Shown: positions 6,828 through 56,913, numbered from the stretch's first letter. The stretch: 64,000 nucleotides of DNA from Escherichia coli (GCF_041886205.1 NZ_CP169029.1), one strand, 5' to 3'. The notes: a model not told the origin generated them from the letters alone. A program made the numbers and translations.

Positions 6828-7670
6828 TTACTCCGGCACGATCCAGCTTACGGTGGCGTGCCCGGTGCCTGCCGGAACCAGTTTGCTGTGCAGCCACGGC
6901 AGCACGTTATTCATCTGCTGTTCCAGCTTCCACGGCGGGTTAATCACAATCATGCCGGAAGCGGTCATGCCACGGCGATCGCTGTCTGGCAGCACCGCCA
7001 GTTCAATTTGCAGAATTTTGCGAATGCCAGTCGCTTCCAGGTCGTGGATCATGCGCTTAATTTGCTGGCGCAGCACCACCGGATACCACAATGCGTAAGT
7101 GCCAGTGGCGAAACGTTTGTAACCTTCTGCTATCCCGCTGACCACCGCCTGATAGTCAGTTTTCATTTCATACGGCGGGTCGATAAGGATTAAACCACGG
7201 CGAGAAACCGGCGGCAGTTTGGACTTAAGTTGCTGGAAACCGTCGGCTTTTTCGACGCGCGCACGGCTGTCTTTCTGAAATTCAGAACGCAGCAACGGGT
7301 AATCGCTCGGGTGCAGCTCGGTCAGTTGCAGGCTGTCTTGTTCGCGCAGTAGCTGGCGAGCAATCAACGGCGAACCGGGGTAGTAACGCAATTGACCGCT
7401 ACGGTTGAAGTGTTTTACCACATTGATGTACGGCTCCAGCTCCGCAGGCAAATCGTCCTGCTGCCAGATACGGGCGATACCTTCGAGATATTCGCCGGTA
7501 CGCTCGGCATGTTCGCTGCCTAACTGATAACGCCCGGCCCCTGCGTGGGTGTCGAGATAGAGAAACGGTTTATCTTTCTCTTTCAGCGACTCGATGATCA
7601 GGCTCTGAACGGTATGTTTAAGGACGTCGGCGTGGTTGCCAGCGTGAAAGCTGTGGCGATAACTGAGCAT
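6828..7670 (-). CDS. rlmJ: 23S rRNA m6A2030 methyltransferase
   Basis: ORF-track 297 aa; start at internal Met (MLSYRHSFHAGNHADVLKH) giving 280 aa. Confidence 0.92.
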   Translation of the reverse strand: MLSYRHSFHAGNHADVLKHTVQSLIIESLKEKDKPFLYLDTHAGAGRYQLGSEHAERTGEYLEGIARIWQQDDLPAELEPYINVVKHFNRSGQLRYYPGSPLIARQLLREQDSLQLTELHPSDYPLLRSEFQKDSRARVEKADGFQQLKSKLPPVSRRGLILIDPPYEMKTDYQAVVSGIAEGYKRFATGTYALWYPVVLRQQIKRMIHDLEATGIRKILQIELAVLPDSDRRGMTASGMIVINPPWKLEQQMNNVLPWLHSKLVPAGTGHATVSWIVPE

Positions 7671-7872
7671 GGGTAAAGGTGTTCCGGTAAGTAAAAATCG
7701 GCCCGTATTCGGGGCGCACAAAAGCCTATCAGGACAGTATACCGAAAAGAGGCCGCCGCCGCGAAAGCGTAACGTTTCTCATTGAAATTCACTACACTTA
7801 ACCCCATGCTACACACATTATGTAAAGCGCCCGTTGAGCGCTTCCCTAACCTCTTTAACCAGGACTGCGCGA

Positions 7873-9915
7873 ATGACGAATCCGTTACTGACTCCCTTTG
7901 AATTGCCTCCGTTTTCTAAAATTCTCCCGGAACATGTCGTTCCAGCCGTGACGAAGGCGCTGAACGACTGCCGGGAAAATGTGGAGCGCGTAGTAGCGCA
8001 AGGAGCACCGTACACCTGGGAAAATCTCTGCCAGCCGTTGGCGGAAGTGGACGATGTGCTTGGGCGTATTTTCTCCCCGGTCAGCCACCTGAACTCGGTG
8101 AAAAATAGCCCGGAACTGCGTGAAGCGTACGAACAAACCCTGCCGCTGCTGTCGGAATACAGCACCTGGGTAGGGCAACATGAAGGGCTGTATAAAGCGT
8201 ATCGCGACCTGCGCGATGGCGATCATTACGCCACGCTGAACACGGCGCAGAAGAAAGCGGTTGATAACGCACTGCGCGACTTTGAACTCTCTGGCATCGG
8301 TCTGCCGAAAGAGAAACAGCAGCGTTACGGCGAAATTGCTACCCGTCTTTCTGAACTGGGCAACCAGTACAGCAACAACGTCCTCGATGCGACGATGGGC
8401 TGGACCAAACTCGTTACCGACGAAGCGGAACTGGCGGGGATGCCAGAAAGCGCGCTGGCTGCGGCAAAAGCCCAGGCCGAAGCGAAAGAGCTGGAAGGCT
8501 ACCTGCTGACGCTGGATATCCCAAGCTACCTGCCGGTAATGACCTACTGCGACAACCAGGCTCTGCGCGAAGAGATGTATCGCGCATACAGCACCCGCGC
8601 CTCCGATCAAGGCCCGAACGCCGGTAAGTGGGATAACAGCAAGGTGATGGAAGAGATCCTCGCGCTGCGTCACGAACTGGCGCAACTGCTGGGCTTTGAA
8701 AACTACGCCTTTAAATCCCTTGCCACTAAAATGGCAGAAAACCCGCAGCAGGTGCTTGATTTCTTAACCGATCTGGCAAAACGCGCGCGTCCGCAAGGCG
8801 AAAAAGAGCTGGAGCAACTGCGTGCCTTCGCTAAAGCCGAATTTGGCGTGGATGAGTTGCAGCCGTGGGATATCGCTTACTACAGCGAAAAACAAAAACA
8901 GCATCTCTACAGCATCAGTGACGAACAGCTGCGTCCGTACTTCCCGGAAAACAAAGCGGTTAACGGCCTGTTTGAAGTGGTAAAACGTATTTACGGCATC
9001 ACCGCTAAAGAGCGTAAAGATGTTGATGTCTGGCATCCGGATGTACGTTTCTTCGAACTGTATGACGAGAACAACGAACTGCGCGGCAGCTTCTACCTCG
9101 ATCTGTATACCCGTGAAAACAAGCGCGGCGGGGCGTGGATGGATGACTGCGTAGGCCAGATGCGTAAAGCTGATGGTTCTCTGCAAAAACCGGTCGCGTA
9201 TCTAACCTGTAACTTCAACCGCCCGGTGAATGGTAAACCGGCGCTGTTTACCCATGACGAAGTTATCACCCTGTTCCATGAGTTCGGTCACGGCCTGCAC
9301 CATATGCTGACCCGCATCGAAACTGCCGGTGTGTCTGGTATCAGCGGGGTGCCGTGGGATGCGGTCGAACTGCCGAGCCAGTTTATGGAAAACTGGTGCT
9401 GGGAGCCGGAGGCGCTGGCGTTTATCTCTGGTCACTACGAAACCGGCGAACCGCTGCCGAAGGAACTACTGGATAAAATGCTGGCAGCGAAAAACTACCA
9501 GGCGGCACTGTTTATTCTGCGCCAGCTGGAGTTCGGCCTGTTCGATTTCCGCCTCCATGCCGAGTTCCGCCCGGATCAGGGAGCGAAAATCCTCGAAACT
9601 CTGGCAGAAATCAAGAAACTGGTTGCCGTGGTACCGTCTCCGTCATGGGGCCGTTTCCCACACGCTTTCAGCCATATTTTCGCCGGTGGTTATGCCGCAG
9701 GTTACTACAGCTACCTGTGGGCTGACGTACTGGCGGCAGATGCCTTCTCGCGCTTTGAGGAAGAGGGCATTTTCAACCGTAAAACCGGGCAGTCGTTCCT
9801 CGACAACATTCTAAGCCGTGGCGGTTCAGAAGAGCCGATGGATCTGTTCAAACGCTTCCGTGGTCGTGAACCGCAGCTGGATGCGATGCTGGAGCATTAC
9901 GGCATTAAGGGCTGA
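7873..9915 (+). CDS. prlC: oligopeptidase A (M3 family zinc metallopeptidase)
   Basis: ORF-track 693 aa; start [14 protein letters not shown] gives 680 aa; HEFGH zinc-binding motif present. Confidence 0.95.
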
Positions 9916-27462: not shown

Positions 27463-27555
27463 ACATGCCATGAGAACCAAGGTACAGGCTTTACGGAAGA
27501 AACAAAAAAATACATTGGATCAAATATTTAAAATTCCTGTTCCTCAAGGGATCAA

Positions 27556-27744
27556 GTGTCTGATATAGAGTCACTGGTTAAAGCATTAGGCGGAGAAATT
27601 AAGGAAGGAAGAGGTTCGCGTTGTAAGTTCATACTAAATATGAGCGTTGCGTGTTTCCATCGGCCTCATCCGTCGCCAGATACCGATAAAGGCGCTGTAG
27701 AAAGCGTGCGTGACTGGTTACTAAGTATAGGGGTAAAACCATGA
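27556..27744 (+). CDS. HicA-family toxin-like protein (non-canonical)
   Basis: 62-aa ORF, GTG start after aaggg RBS; C-terminal half aligns by eye with HicA (G-S-x-x-K-F ... R-P-H-P ... V-R-D-W-L); overlaps next gene by 4 nt. Confidence 0.7.
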   Translation: MSDIESLVKALGGEIKEGRGSRCKFILNMSVACFHRPHPSPDTDKGAVESVRDWLLSIGVKP

Positions 27745-28100
27745 TCAAACTGAAGACGCCAAACTCTATGGAGATTGCCGGGCAACCTGCTGTTATCACT
27801 TACGTGCCAGAACTGAATGCATTTCGTGGCAAATTCCTGGGCTTGTCAGGTTATTGTGATTTTGTCTCTGACAGCATTCAGGGGCTGCAAAAAGAAGGGG
27901 AACTTTCCCTGCGAGAGTATCTTGAGGATTGTAAAGCTGCGGGTATTGAGCCGTATGCGCGTACAGAAAAGATTAAGACCTTTACGTTACGCTATCCAGA
28001 ATCGCTGAGTGAACGCCTTAATAATGCGGCTGCGCAGCAACAAGTCTCTGTTAATACCTATATTATTGAAACACTGAATGAGCGTTTGAATCATTTATAA
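27741..28100 (+). CDS. HicB-family antitoxin-like protein with C-terminal ribbon-helix-helix
   Basis: 119-aa ORF; HicB-like N-terminal region and C-terminal FTLRYPESLSERLNNAAAQQQVSVNTYIIETL RHH-type DNA-binding motif. Confidence 0.72.
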   Translation: MIKLKTPNSMEIAGQPAVITYVPELNAFRGKFLGLSGYCDFVSDSIQGLQKEGELSLREYLEDCKAAGIEPYARTEKIKTFTLRYPESLSERLNNAAAQQQVSVNTYIIETLNERLNHL

Positions 28101-35475: not shown

Positions 35476-36693
35476 ATGCCCGAACCCGTAGCCGAACCCG
35501 CGCTAAACGGATTGCGCCTGAATTTGCGTATTGTCTCCATTGTCATGTTTAACTTCGCCAGCTACCTCACCATCGGGTTGCCGCTCGCTGTATTACCGGG
35601 CTATGTCCATGATGTGATGGGCTTTAGCGCTTTCTGGGCAGGATTGGTTATCAGCCTGCAATATTTCGCCACCTTGCTGAGCCGTCCTCATGCCGGACGT
35701 TACGCCGATTTGCTGGGCCCCAAAAAGATTGTCGTCTTCGGTTTATGCGGCTGCTTTTTGAGCGGTCTGGGATATCTGACGGCAGGATTAACCGCCAGTC
35801 TGCCCGTCATCAGCCTGTTATTACTTTGCCTGGGACGCGTGATCCTTGGGATTGGGCAAAGTTTTGCCGGAACGGGATCGACCCTGTGGGGCGTTGGCGT
35901 GGTTGGCTCGCTGCATATCGGGCGGGTGATTTCGTGGAACGGCATTGTCACTTATGGGGCGATGGCGATGGGTGCGCCGTTAGGTGTCGTGTTTTATCAC
36001 TGGGGCGGCTTGCAGGCGTTAGCGTTAATCATTATGGGCGTGGCGCTGGTGGCCATTTTGTTGGCGCTCCCGCGTCCGACGGTAAAAGCCAGTAAAGGCA
36101 AACCGCTGCCGTTTCGCGCGGTGCTTGGGCGCGTCTGGCTGTACGGTATGGCGCTGGCACTGGCTTCCGCCGGATTTGGCGTCATCGCCACCTTTATCAC
36201 GCTGTTTTATGACGCTAAAGGTTGGGACGGTGCGGCTTTCGCGCTGACGCTGTTTAGCTGTGCGTTTGTCGGTACGCGTTTGTTATTCCCTAACGGCATT
36301 AACCGTATCGGCGGCTTAAACGTAGCGATGATTTGCTTTAGCGTTGAGATAATCGGCCTGCTACTGGTTGGCGTGGCGACTATGCCGTGGATGGCGAAAA
36401 TCGGCGTCTTACTGGCGGGGGCCGGGTTTTCGCTGGTGTTCCCGGCATTGGGTGTAGTGGCGGTAAAAGCGGTTCCGCAGCAAAATCAGGGGGCGGCGCT
36501 GGCAACTTACACCGTATTTATGGATTTATCGCTTGGCGTGACTGGACCACTGGCTGGGCTGGTGATGAGCTGGGCGGGCGTACCGGTGATTTATCTGGCG
36601 GCGGCGGGACTGGTCGCAATCGCGTTATTACTGACGTGGCGATTAAAAAAACGGCCTCCGGAACACGTCCCTGAGGCCGCCTCATCATCTTAA
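35476..36693 (+). CDS. yhhS: MFS transporter
   Basis: Track ORF 419 aa; probable start MPEPVAEP gives 405 aa; 12-TM MFS. Confidence 0.88.
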   Translation: MPEPVAEPALNGLRLNLRIVSIVMFNFASYLTIGLPLAVLPGYVHDVMGFSAFWAGLVISLQYFATLLSRPHAGRYADLLGPKKIVVFGLCGCFLSGLGYLTAGLTASLPVISLLLLCLGRVILGIGQSFAGTGSTLWGVGVVGSLHIGRVISWNGIVTYGAMAMGAPLGVVFYHWGGLQALALIIMGVALVAILLALPRPTVKASKGKPLPFRAVLGRVWLYGMALALASAGFGVIATFITLFYDAKGWDGAAFALTLFSCAFVGTRLLFPNGINRIGGLNVAMICFSVEIIGLLLVGVATMPWMAKIGVLLAGAGFSLVFPALGVVAVKAVPQQNQGAALATYTVFMDLSLGVTGPLAGLVMSWAGVPVIYLAAAGLVAIALLLTWRLKKRPPEHVPEAASSS

Positions 36694-51746: not shown

Positions 51747-53020
51747 AACCGATGCATATTGCAATGGCGTTGCTCTCTGCCGCGATGTTTTTTGTCCTGG
51801 CGGGCGTCTTTATGGGCGTACAACTGGAGCTGGATGGCACCAAACTGGTGGTCGACACGGCTTCAGACATCCGTTGGCAGTGGGTGTTTATCGGCACGGC
51901 GGTGGTCTTTTTCTTCCAGCTTTTGCGACCGGCTTTCCAGAAAGGGTTGAAAAGCGTTTCCGGACCGAAGTTTATTCTGCCCGCCATTGATGGCTCCACG
52001 GTGAAGCAGAAACTATTCCTCGTGGCGCTGCTGGTGCTTGCGGTGGCGTGGCCGTTTATGGTGTCGCGTGGGACGGTGGATATCGCCACCCTGACCATGA
52101 TCTACATTATCCTCGGCCTCGGGCTGAACGTGGTTGTTGGTCTTTCTGGTCTGCTGGTGCTGGGGTACGGCGGCTTTTACGCCATCGGCGCTTACACCTT
52201 TGCGCTGCTCAATCACTATTACGGCCTGGGCTTCTGGACCTGTCTGCCGATTGCCGGGTTAATGGCAGCGGCGGCGGGCTTCCTGCTCGGCTTCCCGGTG
52301 CTGCGTCTGCGCGGCGACTATCTGGCGATCGTTACCCTCGGTTTCGGCGAAATTGTGCGCATATTGCTGCTCAATAACACCGAAATTACCGGCGGCCCGA
52401 ACGGAATCAGTCAGATCCCGAAACCGACACTCTTCGGACTCGAGTTCAGCCGTACCGCTCGTGAAGGCGGCTGGGACACGTTCAGTAATTTCTTTGGCCT
52501 GAAATACGATCCCTCCGATCGTGTCATCTTCCTCTACCTGGTGGCGTTGCTGCTGGTGGTGCTAAGCCTGTTTGTCATTAACCGCCTGCTGCGGATGCCG
52601 CTGGGGCGTGCGTGGGAAGCGTTGCGTGAAGACGAGATCGCCTGCCGTTCGCTGGGCTTAAGCCCGCGTCGTATCAAGCTGACTGCCTTTACCATCAGCG
52701 CCGCGTTTGCCGGTTTTGCCGGAACGCTGTTTGCGGCGCGTCAGGGCTTTGTCAGCCCGGAATCCTTCACCTTTGCCGAATCGGCGTTTGTACTGGCGAT
52801 AGTGGTGCTCGGCGGTATGGGATCGCAGTTTGCGGTGATTCTGGCGGCAATTTTGCTGGTGGTATCGCGCGAATTGATGCGTGATTTCAACGAATACAGC
52901 ATGTTAATGCTCGGTGGTTTGATGGTGCTGATGATGATCTGGCGTCCGCAGGGCTTGCTGCCCATGACGCGTCCGCAACTGAAGCTGAAAAACGGCGCAG
53001 CGAAAGGAGAGCAGGCATGA
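51743..53020 (+). CDS. livM: branched-chain amino acid ABC transporter permease
   Basis: 425-aa membrane ORF overlapping livH stop. Confidence 0.95.
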
Positions 53021-53784
53021 GTCAGCCATTATTATCCGTTAACGGGCTGATGATGCGCTTCGGCGGCCTGCTGGCGGTGAACAACGTCAATCTCGAACTG
53101 TACCCGCAGGAGATCGTCTCGTTAATCGGTCCTAACGGTGCCGGAAAAACCACGGTCTTTAACTGCCTGACCGGATTCTACAAACCCACTGGAGGCACCA
53201 TTTTACTGCGCGATCAGCATCTGGAAGGTTTACCGGGGCAGCAAATTGCCCGCATGGGCGTGGTGCGTACCTTCCAGCATGTGCGTCTGTTCCGTGAAAT
53301 GACGGTGATTGAAAACCTGCTGGTGGCGCAGCATCAGCAACTGAAAACCGGGCTGTTCTCTGGCCTGTTGAAAACGCCATCCTTCCGTCGCGCCCAGAGC
53401 GAAGCGCTCGACCGCGCCGCGACCTGGCTTGAGCGCATTGGTTTGCTGGAACACGCCAACCGTCAGGCGAGTAACCTGGCCTATGGTGACCAGCGCCGTC
53501 TTGAGATTGCCCGCTGCATGGTGACGCAGCCGGAGATTTTAATGCTCGACGAACCTGCGGCAGGTCTTAACCCGAAAGAGACGAAAGAGCTGGATGAGCT
53601 GATTGCCGAACTGCGCAATCATCACAACACCACTATCTTGTTGATTGAACACGATATGAAGCTGGTGATGGGAATTTCGGACCGAATTTACGTGGTCAAT
53701 CAGGGGACGCCACTGGCAAACGGTACGCCGGAGCAGATCCGTAATAACCCGGACGTGATCCGTGCCTATTTAGGTGAGGCATAA
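53017..53784 (+). CDS. livG: branched-chain amino acid ABC transporter ATPase
   Basis: 255-aa ORF; Walker [10 protein letters not shown]. Confidence 0.95.
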
Positions 53785-53785
53785 G

Positions 53786-54499
53786 ATGGAAAAAGTCATG
53801 TTGTCCTTTGACAAAGTCAGCGCCCACTACGGCAAAATCCAGGCGCTGCATGAGGTGAGCCTGCATATCAATCAGGGCGAGATTGTTACCCTGATTGGCG
53901 CGAACGGGGCGGGGAAAACCACCTTGCTCGGCACATTATGCGGCGATCCGCGCGCCACCAGCGGGCGAATTGTGTTTGATGATAAAGACATTACCGACTG
54001 GCAGACGGCGAAAATCATGCGCGAAGCGGTAGCGATTGTCCCGGAAGGGCGTCGTGTTTTCTCGCGGATGACGGTGGAAGAGAACCTGGCGATGGGCGGT
54101 TTCTTTGCCGAACGTGACCAGTTTCAGGAGCGCATAAAGTGGGTGTATGAGCTGTTTCCACGTCTTCATGAGCGTCGTGTTCAGCGGGCGGGCACCATGT
54201 CCGGCGGTGAACAGCAGATGCTGGCGATTGGTCGCGCGCTGATGAGCAACCCGCGTTTGTTGTTGCTTGATGAGCCATCGCTCGGTCTTGCGCCGATTAT
54301 CATCCAGCAAATTTTCGACACCATCGAGCAGCTGCGCGAGCAGGGGATGACTATCTTCCTCGTCGAGCAGAACGCCAACCAGGCGCTAAAGCTGGCGGAT
54401 CGCGGCTACGTGCTGGAAAACGGCCATGTGGTGCTCTCCGATACCGGCGACGCGCTGCTGGCGAACGAAACGGTGAGAAGTGCGTATTTAGGCGGGTGA
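53786..54499 (+). CDS. livF: branched-chain amino acid ABC transporter ATPase
   Basis: Track ORF 241 aa; start MEKVMLSF gives 237 aa; Walker A GANGAGKTT. Confidence 0.94.
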   Translation: MEKVMLSFDKVSAHYGKIQALHEVSLHINQGEIVTLIGANGAGKTTLLGTLCGDPRATSGRIVFDDKDITDWQTAKIMREAVAIVPEGRRVFSRMTVEENLAMGGFFAERDQFQERIKWVYELFPRLHERRVQRAGTMSGGEQQMLAIGRALMSNPRLLLLDEPSLGLAPIIIQQIFDTIEQLREQGMTIFLVEQNANQALKLADRGYVLENGHVVLSDTGDALLANETVRSAYLGG

Positions 54500-54508
54500 T
54501 TTATCAAT

Positions 54509-54541
54509 AACCCGGCAGCTAAGTTCTGCCGGGTTATTTGT
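54509..54541 (+). terminator. rho-independent terminator of liv operon
   Basis: Hairpin aacccggcag...ctgccgggtt followed by atttgt. Confidence 0.5.
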
Positions 54542-54617
54542 CCGTATACAGACTTGTTTCAACTGACCGGGAGGATTAAAAACTGTCCACTTATTTGCCA
54601 TGGAAAGGTTCCCTCAC

Positions 54618-55364
54618 ATGCATTATGCCGTTGTTGTCATGCTTGAACTGCTGTGCTGTATTCACGCTTATCGCTCCGGACAAGAGCGATACTGGATTTT
54701 TATCATCTTCTGTTTTCCAGTGATTGGCTGCGTGGCGTATTTCGTCATGGTGATGCTGCCTGAAACGGGCGCTGACCGTCACGGGCGCACCTTTCTGATG
54801 CGCCTGCAGGACAAAATCAACCCGGAACGCCACCTGCGTAAATTAACCGAAGAGCTGGCGATTGCCGAGACCAATCAAAACCATTATGCGTTAGCTAACG
54901 AACTGGCGCGCCTTGGGCGTTATCACGAAGCCGTTCCCCATTATCAGCAGGCGTTAAGCGGAATTTTCGCCCATGAAGCGGCAATGATGTTAAGTCTGGC
55001 GCAGGCGCAGTTTGCTATTCAGGAGTTTGCCGCCTGTCAGCAGACGCTGGAAGATGTGATGCGTTATAACCCTGATTTTCAGTCGGCAGACGGGCATTTG
55101 TTATTTGCCAGAGCGTTAGCCGCACAAGAAAAATACGCTGATGCGGAAAGCGAGTTTGAAGTATTGATTTCTTATTACCCCGGCCCGCAGGCGCGTATTT
55201 ACTATGCTGAAATGCTGGCAAAAATTAATCGACTGCGTGAAGCCAACGAGCAATATGTTGTCGTGGTTGATACGGCTAAACGTTCAAGGCCACATTATAG
55301 AAAACACCACCGGGAATGGATTAAGACCGCCAATGAACGGCTGAAGCAGAGTATTGTTCAGTAA
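54618..55364 (+). CDS. hypothetical membrane-anchored protein: N-terminal 2-TM (PLD-nuclease N-terminal-like) segment plus TPR-like helical repeats
   Basis: Track ORF 254 aa (54600); alternative start MHYAVVV at 54618; hydrophobic helices LELLCCIHAYRSGQERYWIFIIFCFPVIGCVAYFV; no gene recalled at this position in K-12. Confidence 0.7.
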   Translation: MHYAVVVMLELLCCIHAYRSGQERYWIFIIFCFPVIGCVAYFVMVMLPETGADRHGRTFLMRLQDKINPERHLRKLTEELAIAETNQNHYALANELARLGRYHEAVPHYQQALSGIFAHEAAMMLSLAQAQFAIQEFAACQQTLEDVMRYNPDFQSADGHLLFARALAAQEKYADAESEFEVLISYYPGPQARIYYAEMLAKINRLREANEQYVVVVDTAKRSRPHYRKHHREWIKTANERLKQSIVQ

Positions 55365-55454
55365 GTGCTGCGCCAGATAATCTCTGGCGCGTTAATTTTC
55401 CCCAACGTAGCATTATCCGTGCCCCATCTCCCATTTTCCCTCACCCGTACCGTC

Positions 55455-55535
55455 ACCGCCTTGTCATCTTTCTGACACCTTACTATCTTACAAATGTAAC
55501 AAAAAAGTTATTTTCATGTAATTCGAGCATGTCAT
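55455..55535 (+). promoter_or_regulatory. ugpB promoter region with Pho-box-like repeats
   Basis: ttgtcatctttctgacac and further TGTCA/CATG-containing repeats 60-140 bp upstream of ugpB; ugp is a Pho regulon operon. Confidence 0.4.
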
Positions 55536-55596
55536 GTTACCCCGCGAGCATAAAACGCGTGAATTCGCGCATTCGGTACAACAAGAGAGATAAACG

Positions 55597-56913
55597 ATGA
55601 AACCGTTACATTATACAGCTTCAGCACTGGCGCTCGGACTGGCGTTAATGGGGAATGCACAGGCAGTGACGACCATTCCGTTCTGGCATTCTATGGAAGG
55701 GGAACTGGGTAAAGAGGTGGATTCTCTGGCCCAACGTTTTAACGCCGAAAACCCGGATTACAAAATTGTACCGACCTATAAAGGCAACTACGAACAGAAT
55801 TTAAGCGCGGGGATTGCCGCATTTCGTACCGGCAACGCGCCGGCTATTTTGCAGGTTTATGAAGTTGGCACCGCCACCATGATGGCATCGAAAGCCATTA
55901 AACCGGTATATGACGTGTTTAAAGAGGCGGGGATTCAATTCGATGAGTCGCAGTTTGTGCCGACGGTTTCAGGTTACTACTCCGACAGCAAAACGGGCCA
56001 CTTACTCTCCCAGCCGTTCAACAGCTCGACCCCCGTTCTCTATTACAACAAAGACGCCTTCAAGAAAGCGGGATTAGACCCGGAACAGCCACCGAAAACC
56101 TGGCAGGATCTGGCGGACTATTCTGCAAAACTAAAAGCCTCCGGTATGAAGTGCGGCTACGCCAGTGGCTGGCAGGGCTGGATCCAACTGGAAAACTTTA
56201 GCGCCTGGAACGGTCTGCCGTTTGCCAGCAAAAACAACGGCTTTGACGGCACAGACGCGGTGCTGGAGTTCAACAAGCCGGAGCAGGTGAAACACATCGC
56301 CATGCTCGAAGAGATGAACAAGAAGGGCGACTTCAGCTACGTCGGGCGTAAGGATGAATCCACCGAGAAGTTCTATAACGGTGATTGTGCGATGACCACC
56401 GCCTCTTCCGGTTCTCTTGCCAACATTCGTGAGTACGCCAAATTTAACTACGGCGTAGGCATGATGCCTTACGACTCTGACGCGAAAGATGCGCCACAAA
56501 ACGCCATTATCGGCGGAGCCAGCCTGTGGGTGATGCAGGACAAAGATAAAGAAACGTATACCGGCGTGGCGAAGTTCCTCGACTTCCTCGCGAAGCCAGA
56601 AAACGCTGCCGAGTGGCATCAGAAAACCGGTTATCTGCCAATTACCAAAGCGGCGTATGACCTGACCCGTGAGCAGGGCTTTTATGAGAAAAACCCAGGT
56701 GCGGATACCGCGACGCGTCAGATGCTGAATAAGCCGCCGTTACCGTTCACCAAAGGGCTGCGTCTGGGCAACATGCCGCAGATCCGCGTGATTGTGGATG
56801 AAGAGCTGGAGAGCGTGTGGACCGGTAAGAAGACACCACAGCAGGCACTGGATACCGCCGTTGAGCGTGGAAATCAGTTGCTGCGCCGCTTTGAGAAATC
56901 GACGAAGTCTTAA
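55597..56913 (+). CDS. ugpB: sn-glycerol-3-phosphate periplasmic binding protein
   Basis: 438-aa ORF with signal peptide. Confidence 0.96.

Follow-up and report, generated by a model that had tools for sequence, protein, structure and literature searches.

Tetratricopeptide repeat (TPR) domains are protein-binding modules, and several such proteins serve the envelope of Escherichia coli. LapB (YciM), anchored in the inner membrane, works in the cytoplasm as a TPR adaptor through which LpxC is delivered to FtsH, and YfgM and CpoB (YbgF) are periplasmic TPR proteins. A hairpin anchor is described for the cardiolipin synthase ClsA, in which a conserved PxxG motif in the second transmembrane domain (TMD2) is followed by a linker of charge +3 (Sawasato, Dowhan, and Bogdanov; PMC11698083). 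The globular domain of ClsA is cytoplasmic in normal cells and inverts upon depletion of phosphatidylethanolamine or osmotic down-shock; inversion depends on the hairpin, which also has a part in enzyme activity, and charges in the linker are reported or cited there as blocking translocation of the following domain in both ClsA and LepB (PMC11698083). Here, we describe a gene lying between livF and ugpB in a 64,000-nucleotide stretch of E. coli DNA (GCF_041886205.1, NZ_CP169029.1; the window), the product of which is predicted to join a ClsA-type hairpin to a TPR domain. With slightly better than even confidence, we read this TPR gene as a separately transcribed accessory gene that encodes a hairpin-anchored, cytoplasm-facing TPR scaffold or adaptor.

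In the window, livF (stop codon at 54499) and ugpB (start codon at 55597) lie 1097 bp apart, in keeping with the ~1.1 kb estimated in a preliminary description of this DNA, whereas the same distance in K-12 MG1655 is 398 bp with no annotated gene between, so that the gene is indeed extra relative to K-12, as that description had stated (~0.4 kb, gene-free). The gap in the window holds a single long open reading frame (ORF) on the plus strand (54600..55364, 254 aa), which had been given a length of 248–254 codons. The ORF stands, and the shorter start is favored. PGAP places the start of the RefSeq protein WP_000558833 (248 aa, labeled "tetratricopeptide repeat protein") at ATG 54618, homologues from other genera start at the aligned position, and a Shine–Dalgarno-like GGAAAGG upstream of this ATG is kept in the Escherichia alleles. 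The position of ATG 54600, by comparison, is ACG in all five other aligned alleles (EDL933, two Escherichia sp., E. whittamii, and E. albertii), and the 254-codon start was rejected for that reason. Taken together, these observations make ATG 54618 almost certainly the true start of a 248-aa protein. The in-frame ATG 54600, acquired by the window allele and lying 18 nt before the conserved start, accounts for the range of lengths first given. Public genomes already carry an annotation of the gene, which is not new to databases: the stretch 54400–55700 is 100% identical to strain wlxctx60 from Japanese black bear feces, the O157:H7 Sakai counterpart is ECs_4300 ("hypothetical protein"), and EDL933 is also a carrier. 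Coordinates of all features are collected in Table 1.

Table 1. Features of the livF–ugpB interval, numbered from the first nucleotide of the window
Feature	Position	Strand	Description
Haplotype-distinguishing segment	54500..55412	.	913 bp here versus 214 unrelated bp in K-12
Terminator-like hairpin, livF side	54506..54538	+	just after livF stop; 13-bp stem, −20.9 kcal/mol, z = −5.7, 0/200 shuffles as good
Candidate sigma-70 promoter	54554..54582	+	TTGTTT (54554–54559), 17-nt spacer, TAAAAA (54577–54582)
Shine–Dalgarno-like GGAAAGG	54602..54608	+	9 nt upstream of ATG 54618
TPR gene, coding sequence	54618..55364	+	248 codons plus stop; PLDc_N-hairpin and TPR protein, WP_000558833
N-terminal membrane hairpin	54621..54773	+	residues 2–52; AlphaFold2 helices, hydropathy, column conservation, Pfam PLDc_N
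Positively charged linker helix	54777..54818	+	residues 54–67, directly after membrane helix 2; AlphaFold2
TPR domain	54828..55358	+	residues 71–247, twelve helices, ~180 residues
Terminator-like hairpin, gene end	55369..55391	+	5 nt past stop codon, then UUAAUUUU; −15.4 kcal/mol, z = −4.2, 0/200 shuffles as good
ugpB upstream region	55413..55596	+	179/184 positions identical to K-12 (97%); outside the extra gene

An AlphaFold2 model computed on a 78-member family alignment (mean pLDDT 95.5, pTM 0.83) divides the protein into an N-terminal hairpin, a linker helix, and a helical-repeat domain. Helix 1 of the hairpin spans residues 2–19 and helix 2 residues 25–52, the latter with a break at residue 33 beside P34; the loop between them is short and basic, with the pattern [RK]-T-G-R-x-x-x-W26. 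Conservation within this module is pronounced, with W26 and Y41 present in all 78 members, H16 and G37 in 77, and P34 in 71; P48 is also highly conserved. Helix 2 carries the motif P34-x-x-G37, and the combination of hairpin, PxxG, and basic linker known from ClsA is found here. When the family members are scanned singly, PLDc_N is matched by 21 of 78 at E ≤ 1e-3 and by 57 of 78 at E ≤ 0.1. The C-terminal domain matches the Pfam profiles TPR_19 (E = 3e-6), TPR_1 and TPR_2 (~1.4e-4 each), and TPR_16 (5e-4), with TPR_19 recovered singly in 66 of 78 members at E ≤ 1e-3 and 76 of 78 at E ≤ 0.1. It has the tandem ~34-residue helix–turn–helix repeats of the TPR clan, and in the predicted structure the antiparallel helix pairs wind into a right-handed superhelix. 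The family profile retrieves an engineered consensus-type TPR protein from the PDB (E = 8e-31), and a Foldseek search of AFDB50 returns full-length relatives with TM-scores mostly of 0.6–0.9 (Citrobacter, Xenorhabdus, Xanthomonas, Gilliamella, Maricaulis, and others). The UniProt names of these relatives are "Tetratricopeptide repeat protein", "Cardiolipin synthase N-terminal domain-containing protein", and "Membrane protein", and none is characterized. The most conserved motifs of the TPR domain are NPDFxSADGHLL(Y/F)AR (residues ~151–165) and YYPGPEAR (~186–193). The Pfam matches and the AlphaFold2 helices therefore agree with the architecture first proposed, namely two N-terminal transmembrane helices resembling PLDc_N followed by TPR-like repeats.

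Comparison with the described systems places the protein near several of them and inside none. It shares with the ClsA hairpin two N-terminal hydrophobic helices, a short basic loop, PxxG in helix 2, and a positive linker, and the NCBIfam model bac_cardiolipin aligns to its N-terminal part only (residues 28–85). It differs from ClsA in having a TPR domain in place of the phospholipase D (PLD)/HKD catalytic domains; no PLDc domain is found in Pfam, and the 12.7 bits scored against bac_cardiolipin, relative to a cut-off of 290, speak against a PLD-type cardiolipin synthase (ClsA/B/C). With LapB it shares the order of N-terminal anchor and TPR domain, the cytoplasmic facing being inferred here, and one AFDB relative has been automatically named "LapB". 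The anchor is a hairpin where LapB has a single helix, the C-terminal rubredoxin-type domain of LapB is lacking, the chain ending with TPR-like helices at residue 248, and the length is 248 aa against a 389-position model. The TPR protein is moreover neither essential nor universal in E. coli, and its score against the LapB/YciM equivalog is 12.8 bits versus a cut-off of 474. CpoB/YbgF (TIGR02795) is likewise excluded by score (30.8 bits versus 90.1) and by neighbors, which are liv and ugp rather than tol–pal; relative to YfgM and CpoB, the anchor is of another type and the orientation is likely opposite. The soluble TPR proteins MamA, YrrB, TTC0263, and PilF show only 14–20% identity and do not have the PLDc_N hairpin; relative to these proteins, the SADGHLLYAR and YYPGPEAR motifs are defined from the alignment of the PLDc_N-TPR family alone. 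Matches to all NCBIfam curated families lie far below their cut-offs, and the PADLOC anti-phage defense models gave no family at E ≤ 0.1. Most likely, the protein works like the membrane-tethered TPR adaptors while being a member of none of the families compared.

The mechanism best supported by these features would have the two-helix ClsA-type hairpin anchor the protein in the inner membrane and the basic linker helix, by analogy with ClsA, hold the ~180-residue TPR domain in the cytoplasm, where it may bind a partner and, as a scaffold or adaptor, recruit it to the membrane surface in a LapB-like manner. The sharp conservation of its loop motifs suggests that the domain binds one specific ligand, itself conserved. 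The orientation was judged from charge. One or two uncharged residues precede helix 1, and the 21 residues after helix 2 (48–68) carry a family mean of 4.2 K+R versus 2.0 D+E, a net charge of about +2. By analogy with ClsA, we place the TPR domain on the cytoplasmic side with moderate confidence. Several observations weigh against this reading as a whole. The PLDc_N match in the window protein is short and weak (residues 26–43, E = 1.1e-4, model positions 22–39 of 42), and helix 1 is only moderately hydrophobic, with a mean Kyte–Doolittle value of ~1.26 over residues 1–19 by hand calculation and no hydropathy window reaching the 1.4 threshold. The TPR similarity is generic and uninformative as to the ligand. 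The inter-helix loop carries about two positive charges of its own ([RK]19, R22, and R24), so the positive-inside rule favors a cytoplasmic TPR domain only modestly. Finally, ~85% of E. coli lack the gene, and any role must therefore be dispensable or niche-specific.

The main rival is the opposite, N-out/C-out orientation, in which the basic loop would be cytoplasmic, helix 2 would act as a signal-anchor, and the TPR domain would be a periplasmic envelope organizer resembling YfgM or CpoB. We consider this unlikely, given the ~4.2 K+R and net charge of about +2 that follow helix 2, since in ClsA and LepB charges of this kind are reported or cited as keeping the next domain from being translocated (PMC11698083); the TPR matches are generic and include cytoplasmic proteins equally.

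The resemblance to ClsA might also point to a lipid-linked role, with the protein sensing membrane lipid composition and possibly switching topology as ClsA does, or modulating phospholipid/cardiolipin metabolism. The hallmarks held in common with ClsA (PLDc_N match, PxxG, and basic linker) fit such a role, as do the requirement for the ClsA hairpin in lipid-dependent inversion and its contribution to activity (PMC11698083). The near-invariance of H16 (77/78) and of W26 and Y41 (78/78) suggests a hairpin that does more than anchor passively, and the neighbors in two clades touch lipid metabolism, through glycerol-3-phosphate uptake (ugp) and accA. The PLDc_N module is, however, widely regarded as a plain membrane anchor, the gene neighborhoods vary from clade to clade, the arrangement accA...tilS is a housekeeping one, and the protein has no catalytic PLD/HKD domain. 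We hold a lipid-linked role to be quite unlikely; there is a slim chance that the hairpin would let the TPR scaffold invert with the lipid or osmotic state of the membrane, or that the protein would act on cardiolipin/phospholipid homeostasis. If true, the widespread PLDc_N-TPR family would be a lipid-responsive adaptor that faces the cytoplasm or the periplasm according to membrane state.

The preferred reading, a cytoplasm-facing adaptor, concerns a protein family of considerable breadth. A word-indexed protein search returned full-length relatives at ~94% identity (a cluster named for E. fergusonii that includes a partial Shigella dysenteriae sequence), at 70–78% in Citrobacter, and at 32–44% in Pseudomonas, Exilibacterium, and metagenomes, and when 1.84 billion representative proteins were searched exhaustively with a profile, at least 673 clusters (50% identity) scored E ≤ 1e-30. 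Of the 150 top-ranking clusters, nearly all measure ~245–250 aa and align over their whole length. In a scan of one genome per species, at least 155 loci were confirmed in Escherichia, Citrobacter, Pseudocitrobacter, Pseudomonas, Lysobacterales (Luteimonas, Pseudoxanthomonas, Lysobacter, and Rhodanobacter relatives), and Alphaproteobacteria (e.g., Bradyrhizobium and Rhodopseudomonas), a lower bound because one strict peptide pattern was used. Full-length relatives thus extend across Proteobacteria, and the cross-species conservation on which the initial proposal depended is present. Among them we found no characterized member, and no functional study was found in the searchable literature.

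The surroundings of the gene change from clade to clade. In Lysobacterales it is flanked by accA and tilS; one Pseudomonas group has it next to pnuC and a nadR-like gene; and in another the order is a LOG-family gene, the TPR gene, and an MscS channel gene. When ORFs were called in 84 loci and neighbors within 6 kb were clustered, no neighbor gene was conserved across clades. The sole cross-clade cluster proved to be an antisense shadow of the TPR gene itself, not a second gene; this composition-driven ORF occurs opposite the TPR gene in 51 high-GC loci, with a median length of 237 aa. ABC ATPases near the TPR gene in four distant loci were put down to chance, as their distances and orientations vary. 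This pattern suggests that the TPR gene may function on its own, with clade-specific housekeeping genes as neighbors.

Within the window, the TPR gene appears to form its own transcription unit, given the strong hairpins on both sides and a conserved −35/−10-like block upstream. The hairpin on the livF side, which would end the liv operon before the TPR gene, is kept in EDL933, E1V33, and MOD1-EC7003; its T-run is weak (UUAUUUGU), and it is not listed by the consensus scan. The hairpin at the gene end does appear in that scan (9 pairs, 6 of them G–C). Upstream, the block ACAGACTTGTTTCA...GGAGG(A/T)TTAAA is shared by six Escherichia alleles and C. freundii, while the surrounding intergenic DNA differs. 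We infer that the promoter of the TPR gene may lie at 54554..54582, the match to the consensus being weak and missed by the scan. Co-regulation with ugp (Pho) or liv (Lrp) had been suggested, but this now seems unlikely, since a strong hairpin stands between the gene and each operon; the sequence does not indicate co-transcription with either one. No conserved Pho box was found by eye upstream of the TPR gene in the aligned alleles, and the single CTGTCC half-site in the window allele was rejected, since other alleles have CAGACC. The 184 bp directly upstream of ugpB, which we take to hold the Pho-regulated ugp promoter, are 97% identical to K-12, and the extra gene therefore lies outside the ugp control region.

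The order livG–livF–TPR gene–...–ugpB recurs in E. whittamii, E. albertii, two Escherichia sp. genomes, C. freundii, Citrobacter sp. NCU1, and a Pseudocitrobacter metagenome-assembled genome. From this shared position across the three genera, the gene-bearing state is ancestral and older than the genus Escherichia, and its loss in K-12 is supported, as the preliminary description had surmised. Identity to the window allele, given for the TPR gene and then for livF, is 94.6 and 95.9% in Escherichia sp. E1V33, 93.7 and 97.3% in O157:H7 EDL933 and Sakai, 93.1 and 90.6% in Escherichia sp. MOD1-EC7003, 92.8 and 94.0% in E. whittamii, 90.5 and 92.1% in E. albertii, and 71.6 and 87.0% in C. freundii. 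Divergence of the TPR gene broadly follows the livF/ugpB order, and the gene evolves faster than its neighbors. The same data bear on the possibility of a recently acquired, horizontally transferred island gene. The GC content had been described as native, which is only roughly right: the gene has 49.4% GC and 52% GC at third codon positions (GC3), compared with 53–57% and 64–74% in its neighbors. The low GC3 would suit recent acquisition, as would the patchy distribution in Enterobacteriaceae (of the 155 confirmed loci, the 80 listed include none from Salmonella, Klebsiella, or Enterobacter) and the fact that the nearest relatives outside this family, in Pseudomonas, are only ~44% identical. 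Recent transfer is nevertheless very unlikely, as six Escherichia lineages, two Citrobacter, and Pseudocitrobacter share one insertion point, divergence runs broadly parallel to that of livF and ugpB, and no mobility genes or repeats are seen flanking the gene in the window. An ancient transfer into the Escherichia–Citrobacter ancestor may have occurred.

Further extra DNA was seen at this locus in other species. E. whittamii and E. albertii have ~400 bp extra between livF and the TPR gene that are missing in E. coli; in E. whittamii (locus 7597–7887) this stretch contains a 96-aa ORF with hydrophobic, membrane-like segments, and the DNA aligns well in E. albertii. C. freundii (locus 6850–8324) has four extra small genes between the TPR gene and ugpB, including a PhdYeFM antitoxin/Fic pair, which points to the livF–ugpB gap as a recurrent site of accessory DNA.

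Among 5426 complete E. coli genomes, 659 (12%) carry the TPR gene, which is chromosomal and in one copy, and 4630 (~85%) have a K-12-type gap; a carrier was defined by a match over at least 80% of the gene length and a K-12-type gap by at least 80% coverage. By subtraction, ~137 genomes have neither configuration. The presence/absence survey called for at the outset therefore shows that absence is not limited to K-12. The window allele is rare, with identity of at least 99% in only five genomes, and 641 genomes fall at 90–95%. The 214 bp that stand in K-12 in place of the haplotype-distinguishing segment contain a different terminator-like hairpin and two repetitive extragenic palindromic (REP) elements. 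No remnant of the TPR gene was detected in the K-12 gap by blastn-short, and only the 184-bp ugp upstream region is held in common. From this comparison, the K-12 state is a replacement rather than a clean deletion.

On the other side of the gap, identity to K-12 is 99.5% for livG, compared over 562 bp, and only 96.2% for livF, which has a TGA stop codon versus TAA (window 53017–54499). This difference in identity and in stop codon suggests that a recombination event had its breakpoint within or close to livF, and this breakpoint would be linked to the two gap haplotypes. A third haplotype is seen in O157:H7 EDL933 (locus 2264–2622), where 360 bp, versus 232 bp in the window, separate the TPR gene from ugpB, and ~177 bp of this spacer are related neither to the window nor to K-12; a two-piece match like that of EDL933 is also found in many other genomes. 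The remainder of the window looks K-12-like, with acpT, for example, directly after yhhT and the O157 island present in Sakai lacking. In the annotation of wlxctx60 (35901–36531; roughly window 27500–28100), the nikR–yhhJ interval has a HicB antitoxin gene beside a frameshifted HicA toxin gene.

The TPR gene is real and selectively maintained. Pairwise comparison with EDL933, E1V33, MOD1-EC7003, and E. whittamii (Nei–Gojobori) gives dN/dS of 0.066–0.119 at dS of 0.19–0.31; values of 0.07–0.12 denote purifying selection. The neighboring livF and ugpB are constrained more strongly (0.006–0.03), and the TPR gene is annotated as a coding sequence in all rows examined among carrier genomes. A decaying or functionless remnant that persists in some lineages en route to loss might be read from its absence in ~85% of complete genomes, a frameshifted and truncated allele in the E. 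albertii type strain, and evolution faster than that of its neighbors (93.7 versus 97% identity to EDL933), but it is hardly credible and is largely refuted by the selection analysis, by a frame that is intact in all alleles examined except that of the type strain, and by full-length conservation with invariant residues out to Pseudomonas, Lysobacterales, and Alphaproteobacteria. The exceptional allele, in E. albertii NBRC 107761 (locus 8001–8743), has a 1-base gap relative to the window, and its ORF stops at 8609 rather than ~8747; on account of this early end, it is probably a pseudogene.

These findings introduce no new principle, as membrane-tethered TPR adaptors are well-known and the architecture is already visible in UniProt names. 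They do define a sizeable family of fixed architecture, a ClsA-type hairpin followed by a TPR domain, which is spread across Proteobacteria. In E. coli, K-12 does not have the gene, which has therefore been out of reach of the usual resources for functional genomics. A clean two-state polymorphism of known ancestral state exists at the locus, with the gene in 12% of genomes and a REP-containing gap in 85%, and it sets O157:H7, which has the gene, apart from K-12, which does not. The novelty is modest and lies in two things: a defined, widespread PLDc_N-hairpin and TPR family, and a polymorphism in E. coli between an ancestral gene and its REP-containing replacement.

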